Shown here: piece by piece, positions 2,253 to 60,262 of the stretch
Numbering within the stretch: position 1 is the first letter of the stretch
Layout: each line of letters opens with the position of its first letter
From: a phage
Reading direction: 5' to 3' (one strand)
DNA: 64,000 nucleotides
NCBI GenBank assembly: GCA_016658885.1
Contig: GCA_016658885.1_4807.1
The notes under the pieces: generated by a model
Database searches by the model: none
Told to the model about the DNA's origin: nothing
What the model saw: the letters and a program-made list of their open reading frames with translations, nothing else
Translations under genes and position numbers: made by a program

Positions 2253-2741
2253 CTAGTGGCGGGAGAATTGCTCACCTTCTTTGGCCGCCTCTCCAAAATC
2301 CTTGTAGAAATCGTCCATAGAACGGCCCATTTTACTATTGCCGTTTTCATCAATCATCGTGATGCCGTAGATGATATTCAGTTCACGAATAGCATTAAGC
2401 TTGGCTGATGCCGCGACTTCTGGATCACGCACAAGCTTGACCAAATTGTGAATTGCACCTTTTACGCTCCATAAATCCTTGAGTGGCATTTCTTCCATAC
2501 GCTTTTTGAAGCGCATTTTGTAGTACGGATTGCGTTGTGCGCAAAGGATTCGCTGGCCAGTGTAGTTATCCGTTGCAACTTCCATTCCAAATACTAGTGC
2601 AAAAGCTGCGCGCATGTCATGGCCCTGAATAACAAGGTCAATGAACTCATCGAATAAAGCCTGATTGTGCTCTGCAAATCGCGGGTCTTCAAAGTCTTCA
2701 GGCATCGCTACATAATCTTGACTCATAGTGCAAAATCCCAT
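2253..2741 (-). CDS. hypothetical protein
   Basis: 162-aa ORF (alternative start at 2726, MSQDYV); no clear SD; overlaps motif copies at its 5' end. Confidence 0.45.
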   Translation of the reverse strand: MGFCTMSQDYVAMPEDFEDPRFAEHNQALFDEFIDLVIQGHDMRAAFALVFGMEVATDNYTGQRILCAQRNPYYKMRFKKRMEEMPLKDLWSVKGAIHNLVKLVRDPEVAASAKLNAIRELNIIYGITMIDENGNSKMGRSMDDFYKDFGEAAKEGEQFSRH

Positions 2742-2949: not shown

Positions 2950-3320
2950 TTGAAGCGTATCATGACGTATCATCCGTATTGCCGCAAGTCTTTGTTTTTA
3001 CTTATATATTACGGATGATACGTTAAATATATAAATTAACATAAGTATGAGGATGTAGAAAAAAATTAATTTAAATTAATTCAAAATGGAGTTAATTAAT
3101 TTTTCAAATTATATATATAACGATGCCCAGTTTTATCCGTATCATCCGTAAGATTAATGTACAAGCCAGGCGCGGCAAGGGCTGTACACTGATACGGATA
3201 AAAAACCATGACGTATCATGACGTAAGGGTGTACCAATTTGGAAAGGATGAATCCAGGAACGGCGCGGCCTGTAGCCATGATACGCTTAATTTTTAACCG
3301 TATTTTAAGCGTATCAAATG
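2950..3320. promoter_or_regulatory. iteron-like hub A: tandem/inverted 9-bp repeats (ACGTATCAT / ATCCGTATC family) flanking an about 100-bp core of over 90 percent AT
   Basis: cgtatcatgacgtatcatccgta (2955-2978), tacggatgatacg (3010-3022), AT core 3025-3125 with AAATTAATTTAAA palindromes, atccgtatcatccgta (3133-3150), catgacgtatcatgacgta (3209-3227). Confidence 0.55.
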
Positions 3321-3557
3321 TGTTCAAACACCACGTTTCACGACACTAAAATTTCAATCCATAGATATAATCTAACAAACATCACGGACCAATAGACACG
3401 ACCTATGAAATATATTTCTAAATATTTCCGCACAATCAATAAATAAAACACAACCTCATAATCATTCCATCGCAAAACACGACCCAAACAACAAAAGGCC
3501 GCATAAAGCGACCAATTGCACACATTCCATTCTTCAAAACACACAAATCAATGTTCT

Positions 3558-4091
3558 TTATCCGCTGACCTTCCAGTCACCATTCCTTTTATCACGCTTC
3601 TTTAACTCCGTTTTAATGACATTATTATCCACAATAACTCCTAAACGGCGCAATTCACACATGACCTTGTGGCGATATTGTCGAAGCTTTTTGACGTCCA
3701 TTGTGCTCCTTGAATAAGATAATACCATAAAAATAATATCATCATTCATCTTGTAGCGCATACAAGTTTTATAATGCCTTTTGAAAATAGCATTAACGGC
3801 ATCTGTTTTCAGCAATTCATCCATTAATTCTTGATTCCCTTCACAGACGTTAATGACCCATTCATCCCTTGATTTTGCCGCTTTCAATCCCCTTAGAGTT
3901 AATAACTCATATAATGCCTTTCTGCACTTAGAGCAATCACCAATTGTCAAACTTGATTCCATTTCTTGAGCATCGGTCAACTCTGTATTGCCTTTGCTGA
4001 ATTTACCGCACAAGCTGATTTGCTCGCCGTCGTCAAAGTAGTGGGCAAGTTTTGAGTATCGCGGCTTGCCCCATCCTGCAACGTTACCCAT
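3558..4091 (-). CDS. hypothetical protein (Cys-rich)
   Basis: ATG at 4089-4091 with AAGGAGG SD; ATGA overlap with upstream gene; ORF track start at 4094 is GTG. Confidence 0.55.
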   Translation of the reverse strand: MGNVAGWGKPRYSKLAHYFDDGEQISLCGKFSKGNTELTDAQEMESSLTIGDCSKCRKALYELLTLRGLKAAKSRDEWVINVCEGNQELMDELLKTDAVNAIFKRHYKTCMRYKMNDDIIFMVLSYSRSTMDVKKLRQYRHKVMCELRRLGVIVDNNVIKTELKKRDKRNGDWKVSG

Positions 4092-11336: not shown

Positions 11337-11984
11337 TTATCCTGTGGCCTGCATATTGCGTACATACTTCTGCTCTAATGAATAGATGAAGTCGGCGACC
11401 GTAAATCCCTTTGTGTGCCATTCATACATGGTGAAGCCTGTATTCAGGAAATAGCCGCGCACCTTGTCCATCGCTTCAGCTTCCTCCATGGAAGCCATCA
11501 GCGCGGCGACGTTGTCATAAGAAGGCACAAATCCCTTCTTGCGTAGCGCATTGCGCAAATCTTTAGTTCTGAATCCAATCTTGCAAGGGTCATCGCGCCC
11601 AGTGGATGATGCAACCTTCGGTAGCGCAAGGAACTCTTTAAGGAACATCGCAATGTTCAAGTCGCCTGCGTCATCAAGCTTCTGGATTCGGTTGCGACCG
11701 CGCCCCTTGAATTCACTTGCACGAGGGTGAGCGCCAAAACAGTGCGCCCCTTCCAGTTTAGGGTCGATGATCATTACATCTTTACCAATGCGCAGCTCTA
11801 CGTAGTAAAGATAAGACTCATCGACAAGCTTTGTGCGCTTGCAAGTGATTGAGTCCTTATCATAACCAAAGCCGCGCAACACGGTTGAAATCATCCGGTT
11901 CATTTCTTCGCCGTGAACATCACTTTCTTTGTTCAGTTCACCAAGATGTTGAAAGAATTTAGCGATGTTGATTGCTTTATTCAT
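11337..11984 (-). CDS. hypothetical protein
   Basis: 215-aa ORF; ATGA overlap with helicase gene stop. Confidence 0.55.
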   Translation of the reverse strand: MNKAINIAKFFQHLGELNKESDVHGEEMNRMISTVLRGFGYDKDSITCKRTKLVDESYLYYVELRIGKDVMIIDPKLEGAHCFGAHPRASEFKGRGRNRIQKLDDAGDLNIAMFLKEFLALPKVASSTGRDDPCKIGFRTKDLRNALRKKGFVPSYDNVAALMASMEEAEAMDKVRGYFLNTGFTMYEWHTKGFTVADFIYSLEQKYVRNMQATG

Positions 11985-13654
11985 CAGAATTCATCCTTAT
12001 CTCTTCCCAAAGAACGTTTACGCTCAATAACCTTCTTCAAGAATTCAATATCTTCAGGGTCAGACTCATCGCGGATAAGATACGCTAAGATGGTCATCAA
12101 GTCAGAAATGTATTCCCCTGCTTCATTCTTAATCAGCGGCGTAAAGTAACCGCGCTGGTTGCGATAGGTCGCAGGCTCAAAGCCAAGCTTTGACATGTGC
12201 GGCGCAAGGGTACGAGAGAAAGGCGACTTGCCGCACTTCGCTCTGAATCCCATAGCGATAGCACCACTGGTGATGTGCCAGCGTCCACTGTGATGTCGGT
12301 CATAAGGCGCGGTGATGACGACTTCAACAAGGTCGTTGTCAACCATCTCATCACGGATAACGCCGCGTGCACGTTCCATTTCGTTCTTGCTGAACTCAGT
12401 AAGCATGCGAGATGTTTCACCAACAAAAGCGTTATAGCCTGCTTCGCCGTGCTTCTCCATCCACGCAGCGCACTCAGCCATAAGCTGCCAAACATCTTCT
12501 TTCAAAGTGGAAAGGTCAGCTTGGAAGTCTTTAGACCAGTTCGGTTGCCCGTCCTTGTCAGCAAGTTGGCCAACAAAGATAGGGTAAACACGACGGTTGC
12601 CCGTATCGTCACGCTGCATGCCTGCGTATTCGTTGCCGTCCATGATCGCAATCCACTGGCGTGGTTTAACCTGCGTGTCTTCAAATTTGAAGTCCAGGTC
12701 ATCTTCCGTCTTAGTCAGGAATGCTTTCATGTTTTCGATGTCGGCCTTTTTAAAGCCTGTCATCTCGCCAACGTTCGCGATAATTGAGCGACCCGTAATA
12801 GCTCGCAAGAACGGGTTGAAGTTTTGCGCGGCCAAGTTCAACGGAATCGGTGTTGCGTGGCGGTCATTCATAATAGCTTCGCAAAGCAGCTTACTAAAAT
12901 AACTCTTCCCTGCGTTCTGGCCGCCGATTAGCGCAATGGAGATTGGCGCTTGACAGCCAGGGTTGGTCAGGCGGTTATAGAGCGATAGCCAAAAATACAC
13001 ACCGATTTGTCGGTTTAACTCTGTATCGAACGGTCGGAATAGCTCGATAAGGTATTTCTCAATGCGCGCAGCACCGTCCCATTCAGGCAGCTTCTTGTAG
13101 AAGAAGTCCATCAGGTCGTCGCGCTGATAACGCATGGCCCATTCCTTATAGGATTGAGCGACCTGCCGTGAGTTTGGGTTGGACAGGCCTGCTGCGTCGA
13201 CAGCGGCAACTATCTCTGTGACTTCCAACGTCCGGTCGGTGAATGTTTCGCCGCGATGGTCGACTAAGCGCCCACGAAAAGTATCTTTGTGAGGGAATGG
13301 AACAACGCCGCTTCCCTTATCAAACAACGCGTCGAAAACCGCATAACGGTTCATGTCACTCGTACGGTCCGCCTGAAGAACAAAATCATCTTTCGTCGGT
13401 TTATAATGAGGGAACTTGATTACCTGAAGTGAGGCGAGCAAACGTGCTCTTTCAACCAAGTCTTCTTCACCGTAGCATTCCATGCGCTCTGAATCTTTTT
13501 CAACGGCTTTATGTTGAAGGCTGATTTTAGCTCTGGTGCCTTGCTGCTCTGCTGCCTGCATTTCTTCCGAAACGCCTGCATCTTGAATTTCGTCAAAGAT
13601 TGCACCAAATTCATCACCTGTATCCTCTGGAAGATTGTCATTATTAATTGACAT
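11984..13654 (-). CDS. P-loop NTPase, putative primase-associated DNA helicase (VirE/D5-like)
   Basis: 556-aa ORF, AGGAGG SD; Walker A IALIGGQNAGKSYF; adjacent to primase gene; family assignment from motif only. Confidence 0.5.
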   Translation of the reverse strand: MSINNDNLPEDTGDEFGAIFDEIQDAGVSEEMQAAEQQGTRAKISLQHKAVEKDSERMECYGEEDLVERARLLASLQVIKFPHYKPTKDDFVLQADRTSDMNRYAVFDALFDKGSGVVPFPHKDTFRGRLVDHRGETFTDRTLEVTEIVAAVDAAGLSNPNSRQVAQSYKEWAMRYQRDDLMDFFYKKLPEWDGAARIEKYLIELFRPFDTELNRQIGVYFWLSLYNRLTNPGCQAPISIALIGGQNAGKSYFSKLLCEAIMNDRHATPIPLNLAAQNFNPFLRAITGRSIIANVGEMTGFKKADIENMKAFLTKTEDDLDFKFEDTQVKPRQWIAIMDGNEYAGMQRDDTGNRRVYPIFVGQLADKDGQPNWSKDFQADLSTLKEDVWQLMAECAAWMEKHGEAGYNAFVGETSRMLTEFSKNEMERARGVIRDEMVDNDLVEVVITAPYDRHHSGRWHITSGAIAMGFRAKCGKSPFSRTLAPHMSKLGFEPATYRNQRGYFTPLIKNEAGEYISDLMTILAYLIRDESDPEDIEFLKKVIERKRSLGRDKDEF

Positions 13655-14963: not shown

Positions 14964-16046
14964 CTATTTTATGCCACCTGCACGACGATTTATCATGTCA
15001 AGTTGATTCTCAATATAAGGCATTACGATTGCTTCAACAAAAGCGGTCCAACCTTTCTTGCCTTCCCCTTTCCGGTGACAGTCGTGGGCGCAACCGAACA
15101 CAAACTCATGTTCTGCACCAGGAATAGGGCCGCGAAAGTAAGCGCCATACGGGTCGCCGTTGGTGTGCTCTTCACCCCAAGGACATATTATGCGACACTT
15201 GCCTGACATGTTCTCGATGACGTCGCCATCAGACCCTTCACCCATCTTGTTGCGCGCAAGAATTTGCTGGGCTATTTTATACCAAACAGCATCATACTTG
15301 TATTCATCGACGTCAATTTGAATCTCACGCTTTTGCGGCATTACAACGTGAAAGCCAAATGCCTGGCAGATGTCTTCGATGGTGTAGCGCAAGGAGTAGT
15401 CTGCATGGACAAGTCGGCAGCGGAACGGGTCGCCGTTCTCATCGACATATTTATAGGGGCCGTCGTGAGTCACACGCTTATTGTTGATGCATCCAGGAAC
15501 ACGGCCCACGCGCGTTACGTCTTTAATCGTGTTGTCGCCGCCCTTCTTGAGTACCATGTTAACGAAAGACCCAAGGAACGCTTTGAACTGAATAAGATGG
15601 TCAATCGGTTCTTTAAAGAAGTACCAAAGCTGGTGGTTGTTCGGTGAAGTCTCGACGATGACAGTCGGCTTCAGTCGCTCAAAAAAGAATTCCAAATCTA
15701 AATCGCCTTTGGACCCTTTACCGTGACCGATGTCGTCGACCATCATCGCCATGCCGTGACCAAAGGCCGACTCTGTACGCCAGTATCGCATCTCACCCGT
15801 CTTTGGGTTGGGAGACTTACGCATTGAACTGATGCAAGCATAGCCGTTTTGGTGCTGCATGAGCGGCTTGCCCAACTTCCAAGGCTTAGGCCAGAAGCTG
15901 CTGTTAATCTTCTTGCCGCGCTCGTCAGTCTGCACCGTTGCTTCAGGAGCAAACACCGTCATGACGCGCTCATCTTCTGGGATGCCTCTCTGGAGTTCTG
16001 TTAAAAACTCTTCAATTATTTTTGCTTCTTCTCTTAAACTAGCCAT
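14964..16046 (-). CDS. putative DNA primase (archaeo-eukaryotic primase / PrimPol-like) with C-terminal Cys/His cluster
   Basis: 360 aa, AGGAAA SD; acidic MMVDDIG and SPNNHQLWY segments resemble AEP motifs I and II; CPWGEEH...FGCAHDCH zinc-site-like; first gene of leftward early operon. Confidence 0.45.
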   Translation of the reverse strand: MASLREEAKIIEEFLTELQRGIPEDERVMTVFAPEATVQTDERGKKINSSFWPKPWKLGKPLMQHQNGYACISSMRKSPNPKTGEMRYWRTESAFGHGMAMMVDDIGHGKGSKGDLDLEFFFERLKPTVIVETSPNNHQLWYFFKEPIDHLIQFKAFLGSFVNMVLKKGGDNTIKDVTRVGRVPGCINNKRVTHDGPYKYVDENGDPFRCRLVHADYSLRYTIEDICQAFGFHVVMPQKREIQIDVDEYKYDAVWYKIAQQILARNKMGEGSDGDVIENMSGKCRIICPWGEEHTNGDPYGAYFRGPIPGAEHEFVFGCAHDCHRKGEGKKGWTAFVEAIVMPYIENQLDMINRRAGGIK

Positions 16047-54408: not shown

Positions 54409-55821
54409 TTATTCCCCTTTCAACCAAGCTTCAAATGCTTCGTCAGTTGCTGCAGAATCCGCAGCGGCCTTTTGTTTTGCGACTACACGCTGTTTTTGAC
54501 CGTGTTCAACGCCGCGTAGATAATTATCCACCACGTCAAACTCAGCACCATCAACGCACTTCAAGCCTAACTTTTTAGCGCCATATTTCGCTACGGACTT
54601 GGAGTCCATAGTTGCATGATCAAAGGCACCAACAACTTTAGACAGGCGCTGGTAGAGGCTATTCTTACGAGCAGAATCAGCGTAGAAAGCAGCAACTGCT
54701 GAATCAGATGCCATTGAGTGTTCCCCTTTTGCTGGACCTGGCGACGCTTTCGCCGCTTTTGTCGGTTTGTCATCTTTTTCGACCGAAGCCCCCTTTACGT
54801 TGCTGTTTTGCAGGCCGCTAACCACATCTTCAGCTTTGTCGCAAGGTGATACATCTTCAGCCTTGACTTCAACTTCTTCGTCTTTGACTTCGGCTTCAAC
54901 TTCTTCTTCATCACCTACCGCGCCACCTTTCAGTTTTGCAATAAGTGCTTCGATTTGGCTGATCAGTTGCGGAAGCTCGCCGCCAGCGTGAGATTCAGTT
55001 TCAACTTCAAACTTCTCTTCACCTTCTGGAGTCTCTTCAGCTTCTGCTTTGACTTCTGGATCAACCATCACTTCTTCACGTTCTTCGGTTGAATCCTTCT
55101 CTTCTGCTTTCACTTCAACTTCGTCCTGATGAGCAGCTTCGGTGCTCTCTTCATTCAGAAATTGTTCGAGCGCAGGGATCAGTGATTTCAGCTGTTCAAC
55201 AGCATTATCACGCGCTTTACCTTTTAACGGTTTTGGCATGTCTAAATCCTCGTTGGATGGTGTTACAGTCGTCAAACAAAGATGGTCAAAGCAACGACCA
55301 TCCAGCACCCGTGCACCTGGTACTCGACCAACGTCCACGAGAGCAATGTGGTTGCCGCGAAGAGTTGTTTGTACCACTTCATACGGCTGCCCGTCAAACT
55401 CTCCAGACTGTATGATGAATTCACAGTCATAGCCCAAAGACAAGTCAACCTTTCCAGAATCGATGGCCTTCTTCAGACGACGGCTAAAAACTTTAAGGTC
55501 GCCGCGCATCCATGGCTTGTCATAATAAACATTGCCAGTTAGAACGCCATCAACGCCATACTCTTCGGGTGCTGTGTTATCCTCATCACCTTCGAATCCA
55601 GAAAGCATTTCGTGATTGTCGATGAAAGGGATATTTTTGAATGAATCTATCGCTTCGGGGTCTTTCACCGCTGACTCTGGGCGATAAACTTTTACGATGC
55701 GATTCGGATCACCATCAAGTCCAACCTGACCTGCAGAATAATCAAAAATGCCAAATGACGAAATGGGACAACCCACAATCGTCAAGAATCCATTTTTGTC
55801 AATTTCGCGTGCCGTTTGCAT
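54409..55821 (-). CDS. putative scaffolding protein (possible prohead protease-scaffold fusion)
   Basis: About 470 aa; globular N-domain then highly acidic Glu/Lys-rich coiled-coil C-region; first gene of late capsid operon. Confidence 0.45.
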   Translation of the reverse strand: MQTAREIDKNGFLTIVGCPISSFGIFDYSAGQVGLDGDPNRIVKVYRPESAVKDPEAIDSFKNIPFIDNHEMLSGFEGDEDNTAPEEYGVDGVLTGNVYYDKPWMRGDLKVFSRRLKKAIDSGKVDLSLGYDCEFIIQSGEFDGQPYEVVQTTLRGNHIALVDVGRVPGARVLDGRCFDHLCLTTVTPSNEDLDMPKPLKGKARDNAVEQLKSLIPALEQFLNEESTEAAHQDEVEVKAEEKDSTEEREEVMVDPEVKAEAEETPEGEEKFEVETESHAGGELPQLISQIEALIAKLKGGAVGDEEEVEAEVKDEEVEVKAEDVSPCDKAEDVVSGLQNSNVKGASVEKDDKPTKAAKASPGPAKGEHSMASDSAVAAFYADSARKNSLYQRLSKVVGAFDHATMDSKSVAKYGAKKLGLKCVDGAEFDVVDNYLRGVEHGQKQRVVAKQKAAADSAATDEAFEAWLKGE

Positions 55822-55929
55822 TCGCATCCACCCTCAAATAAGTATTGTGTATTATATCTAATGAAAAAAACTTAGGCAAACAATAATTATGGTTTGAATA
55901 TGTATAACAACCGATATAGCCGCGCCTTA

Positions 55930-56215
55930 ATTAGTGTGATACGGATGATACGGATAAAATGAGGCGTATTTTTATCCGTATCGGTGTATAAGCCGCGCTA
56001 TCACTGGTGTGCTACGGATGATACGGATGATACGGATACTTTTCATATATAAGAGTTTATAAAAAAAATAAAATTAAATTAGATATATAATTTTAAATTA
56101 ATTTATTTGAATTCCTATAAAGTATCGCGGCAACGCGTATCATCCGTATCATCCGTAAGATTCTTTTGAAAACAACTACTTACTTGATACGGATGATACG
56201 TCATTATACGCGTGA
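55930..56215. promoter_or_regulatory. iteron-like hub B: tandem/inverted 9-bp ACGGATGAT repeats flanking an about 85-bp AT-rich core
   Basis: gatacggatgatacggat (55937-55954), tacggatgatacggatgatacggatac (56013-56040), AT core 56041-56125, cgtatcatccgtatcatccgta (56136-56157), gatacggatgatacg (56187-56201). Confidence 0.55.
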
Positions 56216-56244
56216 AATCCTGCGGCAATCCATTGCCAGGCGAT

Positions 56245-56382
56245 TCAGTGAATATTAAATAGCACTCCTGCAACTAAAACGCCAATCAGCATTGAGTCAT
56301 AAACAGCCCATTTCCAAGAAAGCAAAGAGTTGCAATTAATATTTCGCACTTTAACATAACGTGACTGAATAATCTTTTGCAT
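56245..56382 (-). CDS. small predicted membrane protein (about 45 aa), not in ORF track
   Basis: AAAGAGGAAG SD then ATG at 56380-56382; C-terminal hydrophobic MLIGVLVAGVLF. Confidence 0.35.
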   Translation of the reverse strand: MQKIIQSRYVKVRNINCNSLLSWKWAVYDSMLIGVLVAGVLFNIH

Positions 56383-56454
56383 AACTTCCTCTTTAGTTCA
56401 TATCAAATTAATAATTGCACAGTTTAAATTGCGCTTATTTACAACTATCTTAAT

Positions 56455-57306
56455 TCAGATAATTGGTATTTTCCTGCACTTGCAGTGTATTGCCCATCCA
56501 GGAGGACCGATGTCACCCTTTTTGAACTTCAATTCGCCGCCAACTTCCCATAGGCGCTTGTCATCAAGTTTGAATCTCATTCCGTCGACGTGTTCATGAG
56601 AGATTCGCGGCTCCTTTCCTGCTCCTGAGTGCGCCCACTCAAATTCTTCGACTCCATTCTGGCGCATCCTTTCATCGCTTAGAACGCAATACAATTTGCT
56701 TGTCTGGTCTTTAGCGATTAAGTCGACTCTCTTTGCAGAGAAGTGCTTTACGTTTCGCAACGCCGCCTGAATGCCTGACGTGCCTTGCTGGGCTGGGTCA
56801 GGCGAAGTCAGCGAAAGCATGACTGCTTCGTACACTCTGTTGTGAATATCCTCGCCGACCTTAGTAACTAGAGTCGTGTTAAACGTCTCGCTTGTTCTAA
56901 GAGTGTTCTCAACGAATTTGTTATATGTGGCCTTTGGCGCTTCTATGCCTGCGGACTTAAGGCTTGCGAATGTAGCAGAAGTGGCACCCTTTTCGACCGA
57001 TTTGATAAAATCAGCGGCAATCTTCGACCCAACACGTGCAAATGCCTTTGCCCATTTCAGTTGCAGCCGTTTCATAAGGGTCTGGAATGTCGAATCAGCA
57101 GAGTCTTGCGCAAAGAACTTCTGCACCTGCTTCTTTTCAAGCCACTCTGAAATTCCTGCCTGATAGTCATCAATCATCGCATAGCAAAGACCTTTCATCT
57201 CACGACGGTAGGCCATCGCAATAGCGTTTGATGGGATTATCGGACTGCCGCGCCCGATTCTATCGGGTGAGCGGCGTTCACGTTTTTTCGAAGCTTTAAA
57301 AGCCAT
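56455..57306 (-). CDS. putative head morphogenesis protein (minor capsid, Mu F / SPP1 gp7-like)
   Basis: About 283 aa from ATG at 57306; directly downstream of portal. Confidence 0.4.
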   Translation of the reverse strand: MAFKASKKRERRSPDRIGRGSPIIPSNAIAMAYRREMKGLCYAMIDDYQAGISEWLEKKQVQKFFAQDSADSTFQTLMKRLQLKWAKAFARVGSKIAADFIKSVEKGATSATFASLKSAGIEAPKATYNKFVENTLRTSETFNTTLVTKVGEDIHNRVYEAVMLSLTSPDPAQQGTSGIQAALRNVKHFSAKRVDLIAKDQTSKLYCVLSDERMRQNGVEEFEWAHSGAGKEPRISHEHVDGMRFKLDDKRLWEVGGELKFKKGDIGPPGWAIHCKCRKIPII

Positions 57307-57307
57307 A

Positions 57308-59683
57308 TCAACCTTGCTTCGGTGAATTAGTAGGATTATTGAGCGCTCCGTATGCTTGAGAGCAATCACCCTTCAACCACTCCTTGAATGAGTCTACATC
57401 TAATTCGTGGATTGAATCGAATCCATTCCAACCGTTACCAAATGACGCCTGATAAGCTTCTTTAGCTTCTTCTGCTGAATCGAATCCAAGCATGCATTTG
57501 TGTTCATCAAATTCGCCAGAATAATTATCATTTTGGTTAACGATGAATACTTTAGGCGACTTCATATTTGGTCCAACAAAGCAGTCGACTTCATCACCAT
57601 CAGCACCCTTGGTGCCTTTGATGAATCCGTAGTGGTGCGCCATTTTGACTGCCCATTCACCATCAAGACTGTTACCCCTGCGAATGCTGTTGCGAGGATT
57701 CTCGATGCCAAGAATCATCCCGTGCAACTTCATCTTAGGCAGCGACGCTGCATCCATCTTCCCTACGTTGTGTCGCAAGTTGACGACATTTCCTTTTACG
57801 CTTGGAATCGTGGACGGTTGCACCGACCTTGCATCTTTTTGAGGGTCAAAATCCACATCCTGACCTTCTTTAAGGTAATAGTCAGCAATACCCTCCAGAC
57901 CTTCTTTCAGTTGCGTTAGGACATCAACGTGATGGCTTGATTCGTCATCGGTATCATCCATGTTAATCTCAACTGGTGCCCTGTCAGGGTTTTCTGCCAA
58001 CTCACCACGCGCGGCACCTTCCGGCATTATACCAGTCTCGCTATAGAACTGGCCGCTCATCTTGACAACATCAGCCTTGGCCTGTTCAATATCGGCCTTA
58101 CCTTGCAGAACTTCACCAGCAGACTTGCCAAGCAATGCCATATTCTCTGGAGACATCCCTGGGGTTTCTTCTGCTGCTTCTTCCGGCAAACGGTTGTAGC
58201 CGCTGTTTTTGTCGTCCTTGATGCGGTCGCGCTCTTCATCAGGGGAGATTACGCCAGCATCGATGAGAGTCTTACCAGTATTCGCTCGTTTGTCGTTAAT
58301 CTCTGCAAGCTGAGTAGCAGTAAGTGAACCAACTGGCTCCCATGCCACTTTAACGTCGACTTCCACGCCTTCAGATTTCAAAAGGATTTTATAGTGACGG
58401 TCCAGAATCTTCGTCAAATCGTGCTGCTGACAAGTTTCCAATTCTTCGTGATAGCTGACCATCTCGAACTCACCAGTGGCGTTAAAGCCTTTAGGTGACG
58501 TCCCTAACAGTTTTGTCGACGGCACTTTTGCGATTGCGGCCACCAGCTGGTACTGGTTCATGATGATGCTGTCGAAGTCTGACAAGTTGATGTCGAACTG
58601 GTCCATTTCTTCTTTCTGACCAAGCACTTTGACTGCATAGTTGTCGCGGTACTTGATCCACATCATCAGACGTTCTGCAAAAGACCGCTCATTGGCAATA
58701 GCCTTGTCAACGTCGGTCCGCAGCGTCGTTGTACGCTTGGACATCGCCAGCAATGGCGCTTCGTTAGCGGTACGTTCAGCGGCATAGATGCGTTCATAAA
58801 TCTGCTGAGTCAGAGGAATGCCGCCGTAAATATAAGTCGGCTTGAGAATATCAGCTGGCTCATCGTTGCGCAAGATTATGAGGTGGCTGCGATGATAACG
58901 TTGTCCGCTGATTACCCAATATTCTGGGTCATAGAAGTGCTGTGATGCAGGGTCTGCTGTGTTTTCAGACGTCAGAAACGGCATCATCCAATAAGGGTCA
59001 ACCTGAATGATTCCCTTATAAGACCCCTTTGTCACACCATCAATGTTAAAAGGCTTGCTGTAATATTCTGGGTCATCGCTACGCACATCAAATATGATGA
59101 CGCGGATACCAAAAATATTTTTGAATCGTTCGGCTTCAACTAAGTGCTCTTTGATATTAAATTCTTTATCAATTTGCTTTAGGCGTTCGCTTGCCTGTAC
59201 TGACAATTCTGACTCAGAACTGGATTTAACTTCCCAACCTTTACGGACCGCATCGCGGCCTACCATGGAACACGCCTTGTTCACCAGCCAATGCTGTGCG
59301 ATGATGGCACAAGCTTGATAGCCGATGAATGACTGTGACAAATACCAGTTTTGAAGTTGAATAGGTACTGTGTATGGGTTGACTTGCCCTTCTGAACTGA
59401 TGTTCTTTAAGGCATTATCCATAACCTTTTTGGATACTGTTGCGGAATCGACTGAACGACCTTTTATGATTGCAACACCATCGCCATTAATATCAGGCTC
59501 ATATAAAGGGAAGTCATCAACCGTTTTAAAGGTCGGTCGATTGCTTTCAGTCTTTTCCCAGCGTTGACCGCTGCCGCGCCTTGCAAGGCGTTCAAACGGT
59601 GCCAATGGGTCGCCTGGCGGCATCTCCGCTGGTTCGGCTTCTGGTTGCGTCTTCTCCCAGAGTTTTATGCCAAGAATTTTCAT
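57308..59683 (-). CDS. portal protein with C-terminal extension carrying an inorganic-pyrophosphatase-like signature
   Basis: 791 aa from ATG at 59681-59683 (AGGTGG SD); between terminase and morphogenesis genes; C-terminus HHYGFIKGTKGADGDEVDCFV matches PPase D-[SGDN]-D-[PE]-[LIVMF]-D-[LIVMGAC]. Confidence 0.55.
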   Translation of the reverse strand: MKILGIKLWEKTQPEAEPAEMPPGDPLAPFERLARRGSGQRWEKTESNRPTFKTVDDFPLYEPDINGDGVAIIKGRSVDSATVSKKVMDNALKNISSEGQVNPYTVPIQLQNWYLSQSFIGYQACAIIAQHWLVNKACSMVGRDAVRKGWEVKSSSESELSVQASERLKQIDKEFNIKEHLVEAERFKNIFGIRVIIFDVRSDDPEYYSKPFNIDGVTKGSYKGIIQVDPYWMMPFLTSENTADPASQHFYDPEYWVISGQRYHRSHLIILRNDEPADILKPTYIYGGIPLTQQIYERIYAAERTANEAPLLAMSKRTTTLRTDVDKAIANERSFAERLMMWIKYRDNYAVKVLGQKEEMDQFDINLSDFDSIIMNQYQLVAAIAKVPSTKLLGTSPKGFNATGEFEMVSYHEELETCQQHDLTKILDRHYKILLKSEGVEVDVKVAWEPVGSLTATQLAEINDKRANTGKTLIDAGVISPDEERDRIKDDKNSGYNRLPEEAAEETPGMSPENMALLGKSAGEVLQGKADIEQAKADVVKMSGQFYSETGIMPEGAARGELAENPDRAPVEINMDDTDDESSHHVDVLTQLKEGLEGIADYYLKEGQDVDFDPQKDARSVQPSTIPSVKGNVVNLRHNVGKMDAASLPKMKLHGMILGIENPRNSIRRGNSLDGEWAVKMAHHYGFIKGTKGADGDEVDCFVGPNMKSPKVFIVNQNDNYSGEFDEHKCMLGFDSAEEAKEAYQASFGNGWNGFDSIHELDVDSFKEWLKGDCSQAYGALNNPTNSPKQG

Positions 59684-59845
59684 TGTTAACGCCACCTGAC
59701 AGTGAAAGGGAATCAATCTATATTATAAATATTCATGTGTTTGTAAGCAAATGATATGTATGGTGATCATAAATAGTTCATAAAATATTTTGCTTTTGTA
59801 TCATTTTGAGTTATATTTTAGTTAACCAAACGAAAGGAGATTGAA

Positions 59846-60262
59846 ATGAGCACAACAATTGTATTTGTCGTCTTGCACAACGGCGAAGTCGTTAACGTAT
59901 GCGAATATGAAGAACTGGCAAAGGCCACTGCTGCGCGATATGAAGGTGCTACTATTGACCCGTGGATTTTAGATGCGCGCAACGTCTTGCAGGCGACTTT
60001 GGATGAGTGGCTATTGGGTCGCAAGGTCTATCCAGTAGACGACATCGACTCCATTCAAGGTGAAACAGTATACTTTGAAGATGAATGCGTTCGCGGCATC
60101 GGCAAATTTATGGGATTGTGCCCATCTTCATCCAAAAATAAATTTTATCGTATTCAAGTTGAAGAAAACGATATGTTTGACAAGGTCACGCGCTCGATTG
60201 TTCCTGGCGGCGGCACTCCAATCTTTATGGCAGAATCAGACATCAAGGGGATTATCAAATGA
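59846..60262 (+). CDS. hypothetical protein (opposite-strand gene inside packaging module)
   Basis: 138 aa; strong AAAGGAGA SD; preceded by AT-rich promoter-like region 59720-59840. Confidence 0.55.
   Translation: MSTTIVFVVLHNGEVVNVCEYEELAKATAARYEGATIDPWILDARNVLQATLDEWLLGRKVYPVDDIDSIQGETVYFEDECVRGIGKFMGLCPSSSKNKFYRIQVEENDMFDKVTRSIVPGGGTPIFMAESDIKGIIK

Follow-up and report, generated by a model that had tools for sequence, protein, structure and literature searches.

Two paralogous iteron hubs in a Wifcevirus genome as candidate replication origins, one of them at the left boundary of the terminal repeat

The question raised by this locus is what function is served by a long, repeat-rich non-coding gap situated among the head genes of a virulent myovirus. 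The DNA analysed, referred to below as the window, is 64,000 nucleotides long and comes from a PB1-like myovirus of E. coli, a Wifcevirus; most GenBank records show the strand opposite to its plus strand, and its positions 55000-57500 are 94-99% identical to the corresponding DNA of ECML-117, WFH, Mansfield, and Bas99. The gap, called here hub B, occupies the whole 416 bp of non-coding sequence (55828-56244 according to the list of open reading frames) between a 45-aa ORF and the protease/scaffold gene, and the homologous gap carries no annotation in ECML-117, Mansfield, and Bas99. The genes on either side of hub B are all encoded by the minus strand: to the right the portal gene, one for Mu-F-like head morphogenesis, and the 45-aa ORF, and to the left those for the protease/scaffold, a virion protein, and the major capsid protein. 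Hub B is thus located upstream of the protease, scaffold, and capsid genes and downstream of the portal, MuF-like, and 45-aa genes, in agreement with the original prediction, which had put it at the start of the leftward late operon and had offered two functions for it, one of a pair of origins or a late-gene control site. The elements of the gap and the gene adjoining it are as follows:

54409-55827, minus strand: gene for the head maturation protease/scaffold, which opens the operon downstream of hub B (Pfam DUF2213, 5e-35; annotations)
55937-55955, plus strand: distal tandem iterons, 2.1 copies of TGATACGGA (9-bp unit, 100% match; TRF, repeat families)
55974-55982, minus strand: single inverted iteron ATCCGTATC (sequence, repeats), with a 13-nt hairpin arm pair formed with 55947-55959
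56013-56037, plus strand: core-proximal left iteron array, 2.8 tandem 9-mers, 100% match (TRF)
56038-56129, no strand: AT-rich core, candidate DNA-unwinding element (A+T content, stability scan)
56136-56157, minus strand: core-proximal right iteron array, 2.4 tandem 9-mers, 100% match (TRF), a perfect inverted copy of 56013-56034
56185-56211, plus strand: distal iteron block TGATACGGATGATACGTCATTATACGC, collinear with ATACGGATGATACGTCATGATACGC of hub A (sequence, hub-hub alignment)

The core-proximal left array had been described as three perfect tandem units, which is correct only in the 7-mer register TACGGAT; read as 9-mers by TRF, it consists of two perfect copies of ACGGATGAT followed by a truncated third (ACGGATAC). 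The further tandem and inverted copies expected on both sides of it are present, in the form of the two other TRF arrays and the inverted iteron. The perfect 22-nt inverted repeat formed by 56013-56034 and 56136-56157 flanks 101 nt, and its arms give a DNA hairpin with z = -7.6. The core, of ca. 90 bp, is 86-91% A+T (91% over 56040-56119). An Rfam scan of hub B returned only sub-threshold matches to generic hairpins, the best of them with 31.6 bits against a gathering threshold of 80. Hub B DNA has no match in E. coli genomes and plasmids, nor is there any sign in them of satellites that would borrow these iterons.

Hub B has a counterpart elsewhere in the genome. ACGGATGAT is found in nine exact copies in the window against 0.42 expected (at least nine were reached in none of 100 shuffles), and all of them fall in two clusters, six in hub B (within 55938-56211, at 55941, 56014, 56023, 56139, 56148, and 56189) and three, at 2969, 3011, and 3141, in the second hub:

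2956-3230 (ca. 2950-3320 as a cluster of 9-mers), no strand: hub A, paralogue of hub B; iterons at 2969, 3011, 3135-3149, and 3191, AT core at 3023-3130 (repeats, stability, hub-hub alignment)

Shorter registers of the 9-mer give the same two-cluster picture in the window, and no third hub was found either in the 64 kb or in the complete 68-kb genome of Bas99, which has the same two clusters only. The two hubs align over ca. 245 nt and are paralogous. Of all 100-bp segments of the window, their cores have the highest A+T content and the lowest stability, at -100.0 and -100.8 kcal/mol where the mean is -138 and the standard deviation 8.2 (ca. 4.6 standard deviations away), the core of hub B being the least stable and that of hub A the second. 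The relative orientation of the hubs is ambiguous in Wifcevirus, the hub being nearly palindromic (scores 87 vs. 69), and is direct in 14-1 and Spe5P4. That the hubs bracket the leftward early and late transcription units, as originally stated, is roughly true, but a rightward block of replication genes also lies between them.

Other genera of the group have retained a gap between portal block and protease gene; it is ca. 470 bp long in the Serratia phages of Myosmarvirus, 515-551 bp in the Pseudomonas phages of Pbunavirus, and 370 bp in the Xanthomonas phages of Carpasinavirus. In Myosmarvirus and Pbunavirus it has its own repeat (TTACTTTTCG in the Serratia phages, GGTAATTTGG in Pbunavirus), whose direct and inverted copies surround an AT-rich centre. 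Each of these repeats is found again at a single further site, the gap upstream of the homologue of TerS, the small terminase. This second hub is located at 59173-59472 in 14-1, and the segment 3373-3672 of Spe5P4 has 51 shared 8-mers vs. 22 in the next-best segment. The gap of XcP1 has short repeats and palindromes of its own, with no clear array of repeats around a core and no second hub sharing a motif with it. In a matrix of shared 9-mers made with loci from IMG/VR, comparing 800 nt upstream of the protease gene with 800 nt upstream of TerS in four lineages, the values were 14-76 within a lineage and 2-13, with one value of 22, between lineages. One of the four is an uncultured lineage from IMG/VR with TTGCGG-type repeats, in which a hub composed of repeats and an AT core is found at the same place. 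A scan of IMG/VR for the 15-mer gave the known Wifceviruses and chance hits only. These comparisons point to an old two-hub design, in which the repeat changes from lineage to lineage and the two hubs of a genome remain matched. In light of them, a hub B without function, duplicated from hub A and homogenised with it by gene conversion, is very improbable. The hubs are indeed paralogous over ca. 245 nt, and recombination between them could homogenise the repeats; against this, the genomes are ca. 93% coding, and yet a gap of 370-550 bp is found at the same place in Wifcevirus, Myosmarvirus, Pbunavirus, and Carpasinavirus, the uncultured lineage has its hub there as well, and hub B is 94-99.8% identical among 29 Wifcevirus records, its architecture persisting while the repeat sequence turns over.

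A repeat that is lineage-specific and yet matched in both hubs implies one reader encoded by the phage, and a single lineage-specific phage protein therefore probably reads both hubs; binding of both by one 9-mer-specific protein had been supposed from the start. A host protein is unlikely in this role since the phages of E. coli and Serratia use different repeats though their hosts are close relatives, whose DNA-binding factors are assumed to be similar in specificity. Sites for the host factors DnaA, IHF, and Fis were considered as an explanation of the repeats and rejected: TTATCCGTA matches the DnaA box (consensus TTATCCACA) at only 7 of 9 positions, with the CACA core lost, and the repeats of the E. 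coli and Serratia phages are unrelated. In the relatives, the genes of two candidate readers flank hub A, those of TerS and of a VapE-like helicase. In the window the helicase gene has a primase gene nearby:

11984-13654, minus strand: VapE-like SF3 helicase, a SaPI-Rep-like candidate initiator and iteron reader (Pfam PF05272, 3.7e-28; 7PDS; AF2; Foldseek)
14964-16046, minus strand: RepB-like primase, the probable partner of the helicase (Pfam PF16793, 4.5e-36)

The helicase matches the sequence of SaPI1 Rep (7PDS) with E = 3.9e-11. In its AF2 model (pLDDT 91.9) the C-terminal part forms a helix-helix-helix and beta wing, i.e., a winged helix (residues 436-504), and the top Foldseek matches of the model are six SaPI1 Rep chains, aligned over ca. 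480 columns, nearly the full length, with E of ca. 1e-17. Among 92 homologues the winged helix shows a mean of 23% identity to the window protein vs. 58% for the ATPase domain and is the most divergent folded domain of the helicase; such hypervariability fits a specificity domain, as the iterons differ by lineage. The modelled fold and these comparisons suggest the VapE-like helicase as the best candidate reader of the iterons, TerS being a weaker one. The latter is 41% identical to TerS of E217, for which no appreciable DNA binding was seen in vitro (PMC9611059), and its N-terminus is fairly conserved between lineages with differing repeats. The helicase gene is a close neighbour of hub A in several relatives; the hub A region of 14-1 and the non-coding gap at the hub A position in XcP1 both start at the helicase stop codon, and in MyoSmar and the metagenomic relative L105 one gene separates the two. 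In Wifcevirus ca. 8.7 kb of small genes are inserted between hub A and the helicase gene, and hub B lies ca. 42 kb from the latter. A graded change of the iteron is seen among metagenomic relatives, from ATCTTACGGATGATACGGAT in Wifcevirus through TGATACGT in L104 (14700-15090) to ATCTTGCGGATA in L105 (12700-13200), the last being a relative that uses another iteron, TATCCGCAAGA; the series could be used to map the specificity residues of the winged helix.

We prefer, with about even confidence, a model with two paralogous replication origins of the iteron type, hub B and its sister hub A, both read by the SaPI-Rep-like helicase. The helicase would recognise the 9-bp repeats through its C-terminal winged helix, assemble on the opposed repeat arrays flanking the ca. 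90-bp AT core, melt the core, and load itself there, and the RepB-like primase together with the phage polymerase would then begin synthesis; hub A, the sister site, would also carry the terminase cut for the left end of the terminal repeat. Two distant sites with the same initiator-binding repeats and AT-rich DNA are known from SPP1 (oriL and oriR, bound by G38P) and P4 (ori and crr, bound by the alpha protein), and one of the two sites lies in the late-gene region. The initiator families differ, however, G38P not being an SF3 helicase, and neither SPP1 nor P4 is known to have a link to a terminal-repeat boundary. The closest model is the SaPI/PICI origin, which comprises 6-12 short iterons directly downstream of rep, arranged around an AT-rich centre so that each side has two or more, in opposite directions; its initiator, a hexameric helicase of the VapE/D5 type, uses a C-terminal winged helix to read the iterons and both melts the origin and loads itself there (PMC9371898). 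Hub B has at least nine 9-mers in two sets around 56038-56129, with at least two per side in opposed directions, and an easily melted centre, and the phage encodes a cognate Rep helicase with a winged helix, as judged from homology and the predicted fold. Unlike in SaPIs, the iterons of the hubs are 9 bp long instead of 5-6 bp, there are two putative origins per genome, the setting is a 68-kb virulent myovirus and not a satellite, and one hub coincides with the genome end.

Several observations argue against such a role. Neither hub is located immediately downstream of the rep-like gene in the window, hub B being 42 kb and hub A 8.7 kb away from it; the repeats could belong to packaging, as hub A is next to TerS and has the genome end inside it; and XcP1 has the gap but no detectable pair of hubs with a shared motif. 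The published GC-skew minima of Pbunavirus lie in the block of replication genes and not at the hubs (PMC12390725), which also counts against it. GC skew was discarded as an origin marker in the window, where it follows the direction of transcription and marks no origin. In favour of origins are the confinement of the 9-mers to the hubs, with no copy elsewhere in the genome, and the lack of a transcription start in the hub B core of 14-1. Of the paired origins proposed originally, the origin-like anatomy and the encoded SaPI-Rep-like helicase with a winged helix have been found, while binding of the helicase to the 9-mers and the start of replication at the hubs are what we infer from them.

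The other function proposed, control of late genes through the 9-mers, is not supported; no other promoter and no set of co-regulated promoters carries them. Hub B is nevertheless accompanied by a predicted promoter:

55851-55879, minus strand: sigma70-like promoter TTGCCT-17-TATAAT, directed at the protease-capsid operon (10 of 12 matches in a consensus scan)

In the table of mapped transcription start sites of 14-1 the sole start in the homologous gap is the sigma70 start P014 at 13257, while in hub A of the same phage the sigma70 start P040 (59399) lies in the core and overlaps the repeats, and P041 is found beside the hub, just before TerS (bioRxiv 10.1101/2023.10.13.562163, Table S3). P014 is situated 65 nt before the protease gene, outside the repeats and AT core, and matches the promoter predicted at 55851-55879; none of the mapped starts falls in the homologous hub B core. 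The capsid operon thus starts at the edge of the hub gap and not in the repeats, so the expectation that late transcripts begin at the hub holds, in this related phage, for its edge but not for the repeats or the AT core. A role of hub B mainly in transcription control, in which a phage DNA-binding protein on the repeats would switch the sigma70 promoter of the protease-capsid operon over time, and likewise the TerS promoters at hub A, is in our opinion improbable. It is consistent with the location of both hubs 100-300 bp upstream of sigma70-like promoters of morphogenesis genes, with the 14-1 starts beside hub B and inside and beside hub A, and with the guess made in papers on PB1-like phages that intergenic AT-rich motifs are recognition sites of a phage sigma factor (PMC3008698). 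On the other hand, the repeats are missing from every other late promoter, at least nine sites around a 90-bp melt-prone core exceed the needs of a promoter operator, and the core of hub B in 14-1 contains no mapped start. The intergenic "AT-rich boxes and conserved motifs" reported for JG024 probably correspond to the hubs of Pbunavirus; the authors predicted a sigma70 promoter inside the hub B homologue and left the function open, suggesting a sigma-factor site (PMC3008698).

GC boxes of the form GCCGCGC(N)CTGG are found just outside the iteron arrays, at 55918-55935, 55991-56008, 3160-3180, and 3255-3275 of the window, and also beside the hubs of WFH, MyoSmar, and the uncultured lineage, despite their differing iterons. 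They may be a second, lineage-independent element of the hubs; GCCGCG itself is spread through coding DNA. A phage-specific promoter beside the iterons was considered, as the GCCGCGCC..CTGG boxes recur in several lineages and resemble the "CTGGG" promoter motif of 14-1, and found to be unsupported; none of the 11 mapped starts of 14-1 assigned to other motifs lies in a hub.

Hub A differs from hub B in containing a physical end of the genome and in adjoining a terminase gene:

3080-3095, minus strand: physical genome end, formed by the left boundary of the direct terminal repeat at 3088/3087, with the motif TTAACTCC/ATTTTGAA, the slash marking the boundary (record starts of WFH, Mansfield, and Ro157lw)
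2253-2741, minus strand: gene of the small terminase (TerS), which comes first inside the terminal repeat (E217 TerS structure 7UXE, E = 6e-34; Mansfield annotation)

WFC and WFH were assembled with a terminal repeat of ca. 3.7 kb (PMC6563267), and PhageTerm put the repeats of Mansfield and Ro157lw at 3,673 bp (PMC6753283) and 3,533 bp (PMC6454146), respectively. The three Wifcevirus records compared for the left boundary (WFH, Mansfield, and Ro157lw, the ends of the last two being from PhageTerm) begin at the identical base, ...AATTAACTCC/ATTTTGAATTAATTTAAATT..., which corresponds to 3088/3087 of the window, in the middle of the AT core of hub A. The opposite boundary of the repeat, ...GGGTCTTT/TGGTGCG..., is devoid of the 9-mers. 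The 16-nt cut motif is unique in the window, and no copy of it is present in hub B even when three mismatches are allowed; no genome end is placed at hub B by any record or paper examined. In L104, a relative with a helicase 75% identical, AAATTAACTCC/ATTTTGAA is kept although the repeats have changed. The PhageTerm boundary of the terminal repeat in MyoSmar (3559) also lies within the homologous hub adjoining TerS, and the record of MTx starts ca. 15 nt from it in the alignment. TerS is located 346 bp from the genome end, with hub A upstream of it; its homologues adjoin hub A in MyoSmar and 14-1, and it is the adjacent gene in all lineages examined.

These facts bring in packaging as an alternative, which we consider unlikely on balance. 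Hub A would be the real packaging and cut site, its repeats bound by TerS, and hub B either an uncut auxiliary or synapsis partner of it, as proposed for the pac-like pair in genes 16 and 19 of T4, or a TerS-dependent regulator of head genes. In P1 pac, SPP1 pacL and pacR, and lambda cosB, short protein-binding repeats typically flank a cleavage region near terS; the position of the genome end and the constant neighbourhood of TerS fit hub A to this pattern. Hub B, unlike these sites, has no cut motif, no reported ends inside it, and no terS around or next to it, and an extreme melting minimum is not a defining feature of pac or cos sites. The suggested formation of higher-order oligomers by E217 TerS (PMC9611059) agrees with a terminase site, but its failure to bind DNA appreciably in vitro and the conservation of the TerS N-terminus across lineages with different repeats do not, and the Pbunaviruses retain both hubs while one report finds neither defined ends nor a pac peak in them.

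The roles of origin, packaging site, control site, and duplicate are not mutually exclusive. T7 has secondary origins, phiOL and phiOR, beside its terminal repeat, which are implicated in concatemer processing. Hub A is similar to them in being an origin-like element that abuts the boundary of a terminal repeat and may help to duplicate it, but the T7 elements are promoters of the phage RNA polymerase and the T7 repeat is 160 bp long, in contrast to the iteron hubs and the ca. 3.7-kb repeat found here. It is conceivable, if rather doubtful, that an origin firing at hub A through the adjacent 3.7 kb makes a second, local copy of the terminal repeat in the concatemer, that the left end onto which terminase loads arises from the point of initiation in the AT core or from a coupled cut, and that hub B is an end-less origin for general replication. 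Such a scheme would explain why the end lies inside a melt-prone core, next to initiator-type repeats and terS. The mechanism by which long direct terminal repeats are made has been called unknown (PMC6454146); the scheme, if true, would be a concrete and testable answer to this old question, and the boundary inside hub A offers a direct experimental route to it.

Iteron origins and SF3 Rep initiators are known already; new is the conserved pair of hubs in a group of virulent myoviruses, with one copy at the boundary of a long terminal repeat. In an incomplete search of the literature no description was found of the pairing, the iteron architecture, the link to Rep, or the link to the terminal repeat. 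Phage therapy is a use, actual or considered, of Wifceviruses and of the related Pbunaviruses. If the hubs are origins, the paired lineage-specific iterons and the SaPI-Rep-like helicase would define origins for a whole phage group, link the replication modules of satellites (SaPI/PICI) to those of virulent myoviruses, and supply engineering parts, e.g., for origin-dependent plasmids and rebooting.

Some further features of the surroundings of both hubs were noted. The TerS gene has two sigma70-like promoters of its own at 2807-2762 and is separated from the large-terminase gene by ca. 58-60 kb on the genome map; being located inside the direct terminal repeat, it is present twice in each virion DNA. 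The flank of hub A outside the terminal repeat (3150-3560 of the window) is mosaic among Wifceviruses, with at least three unrelated versions, while the island TCTTACGGATGATACGGAT, the block around the cut, and everything inside the terminal repeat are conserved, which gives the hub, or the genome end, the look of a recombination boundary. Beside hub A, all four genera have a G-poor, C/A-rich tract of 150-300 nt (3330-3500 in the window, 59600-59890 in 14-1, 3700-3880 in MyoSmar, and 54950-55150 in XcP1, where it contains tandem repeats of CCCCAGAACAAC), and the strongest GC skew of the window (-0.23) is found in 3001-4000. Just inside the right boundary of the terminal repeat, in the WFH record (3550-3701), there are 3-4 units like GAATCATT(A/C)GCTTTC, unrelated to the 9-mers, which may be a signal for the second cut. 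Near hub B, a 921-bp gene (gp36 of ECML-117, Bas99_0006), annotated variously as head fibre, tail fibre, or hypothetical, is situated between the Mu-F-like gene and the 45-aa ORF in the relatives matching most of the query (29 of the 30 matching records); it is absent from the window phage, which has in its place 54 bp with a terminator-like hairpin (56401-56454).
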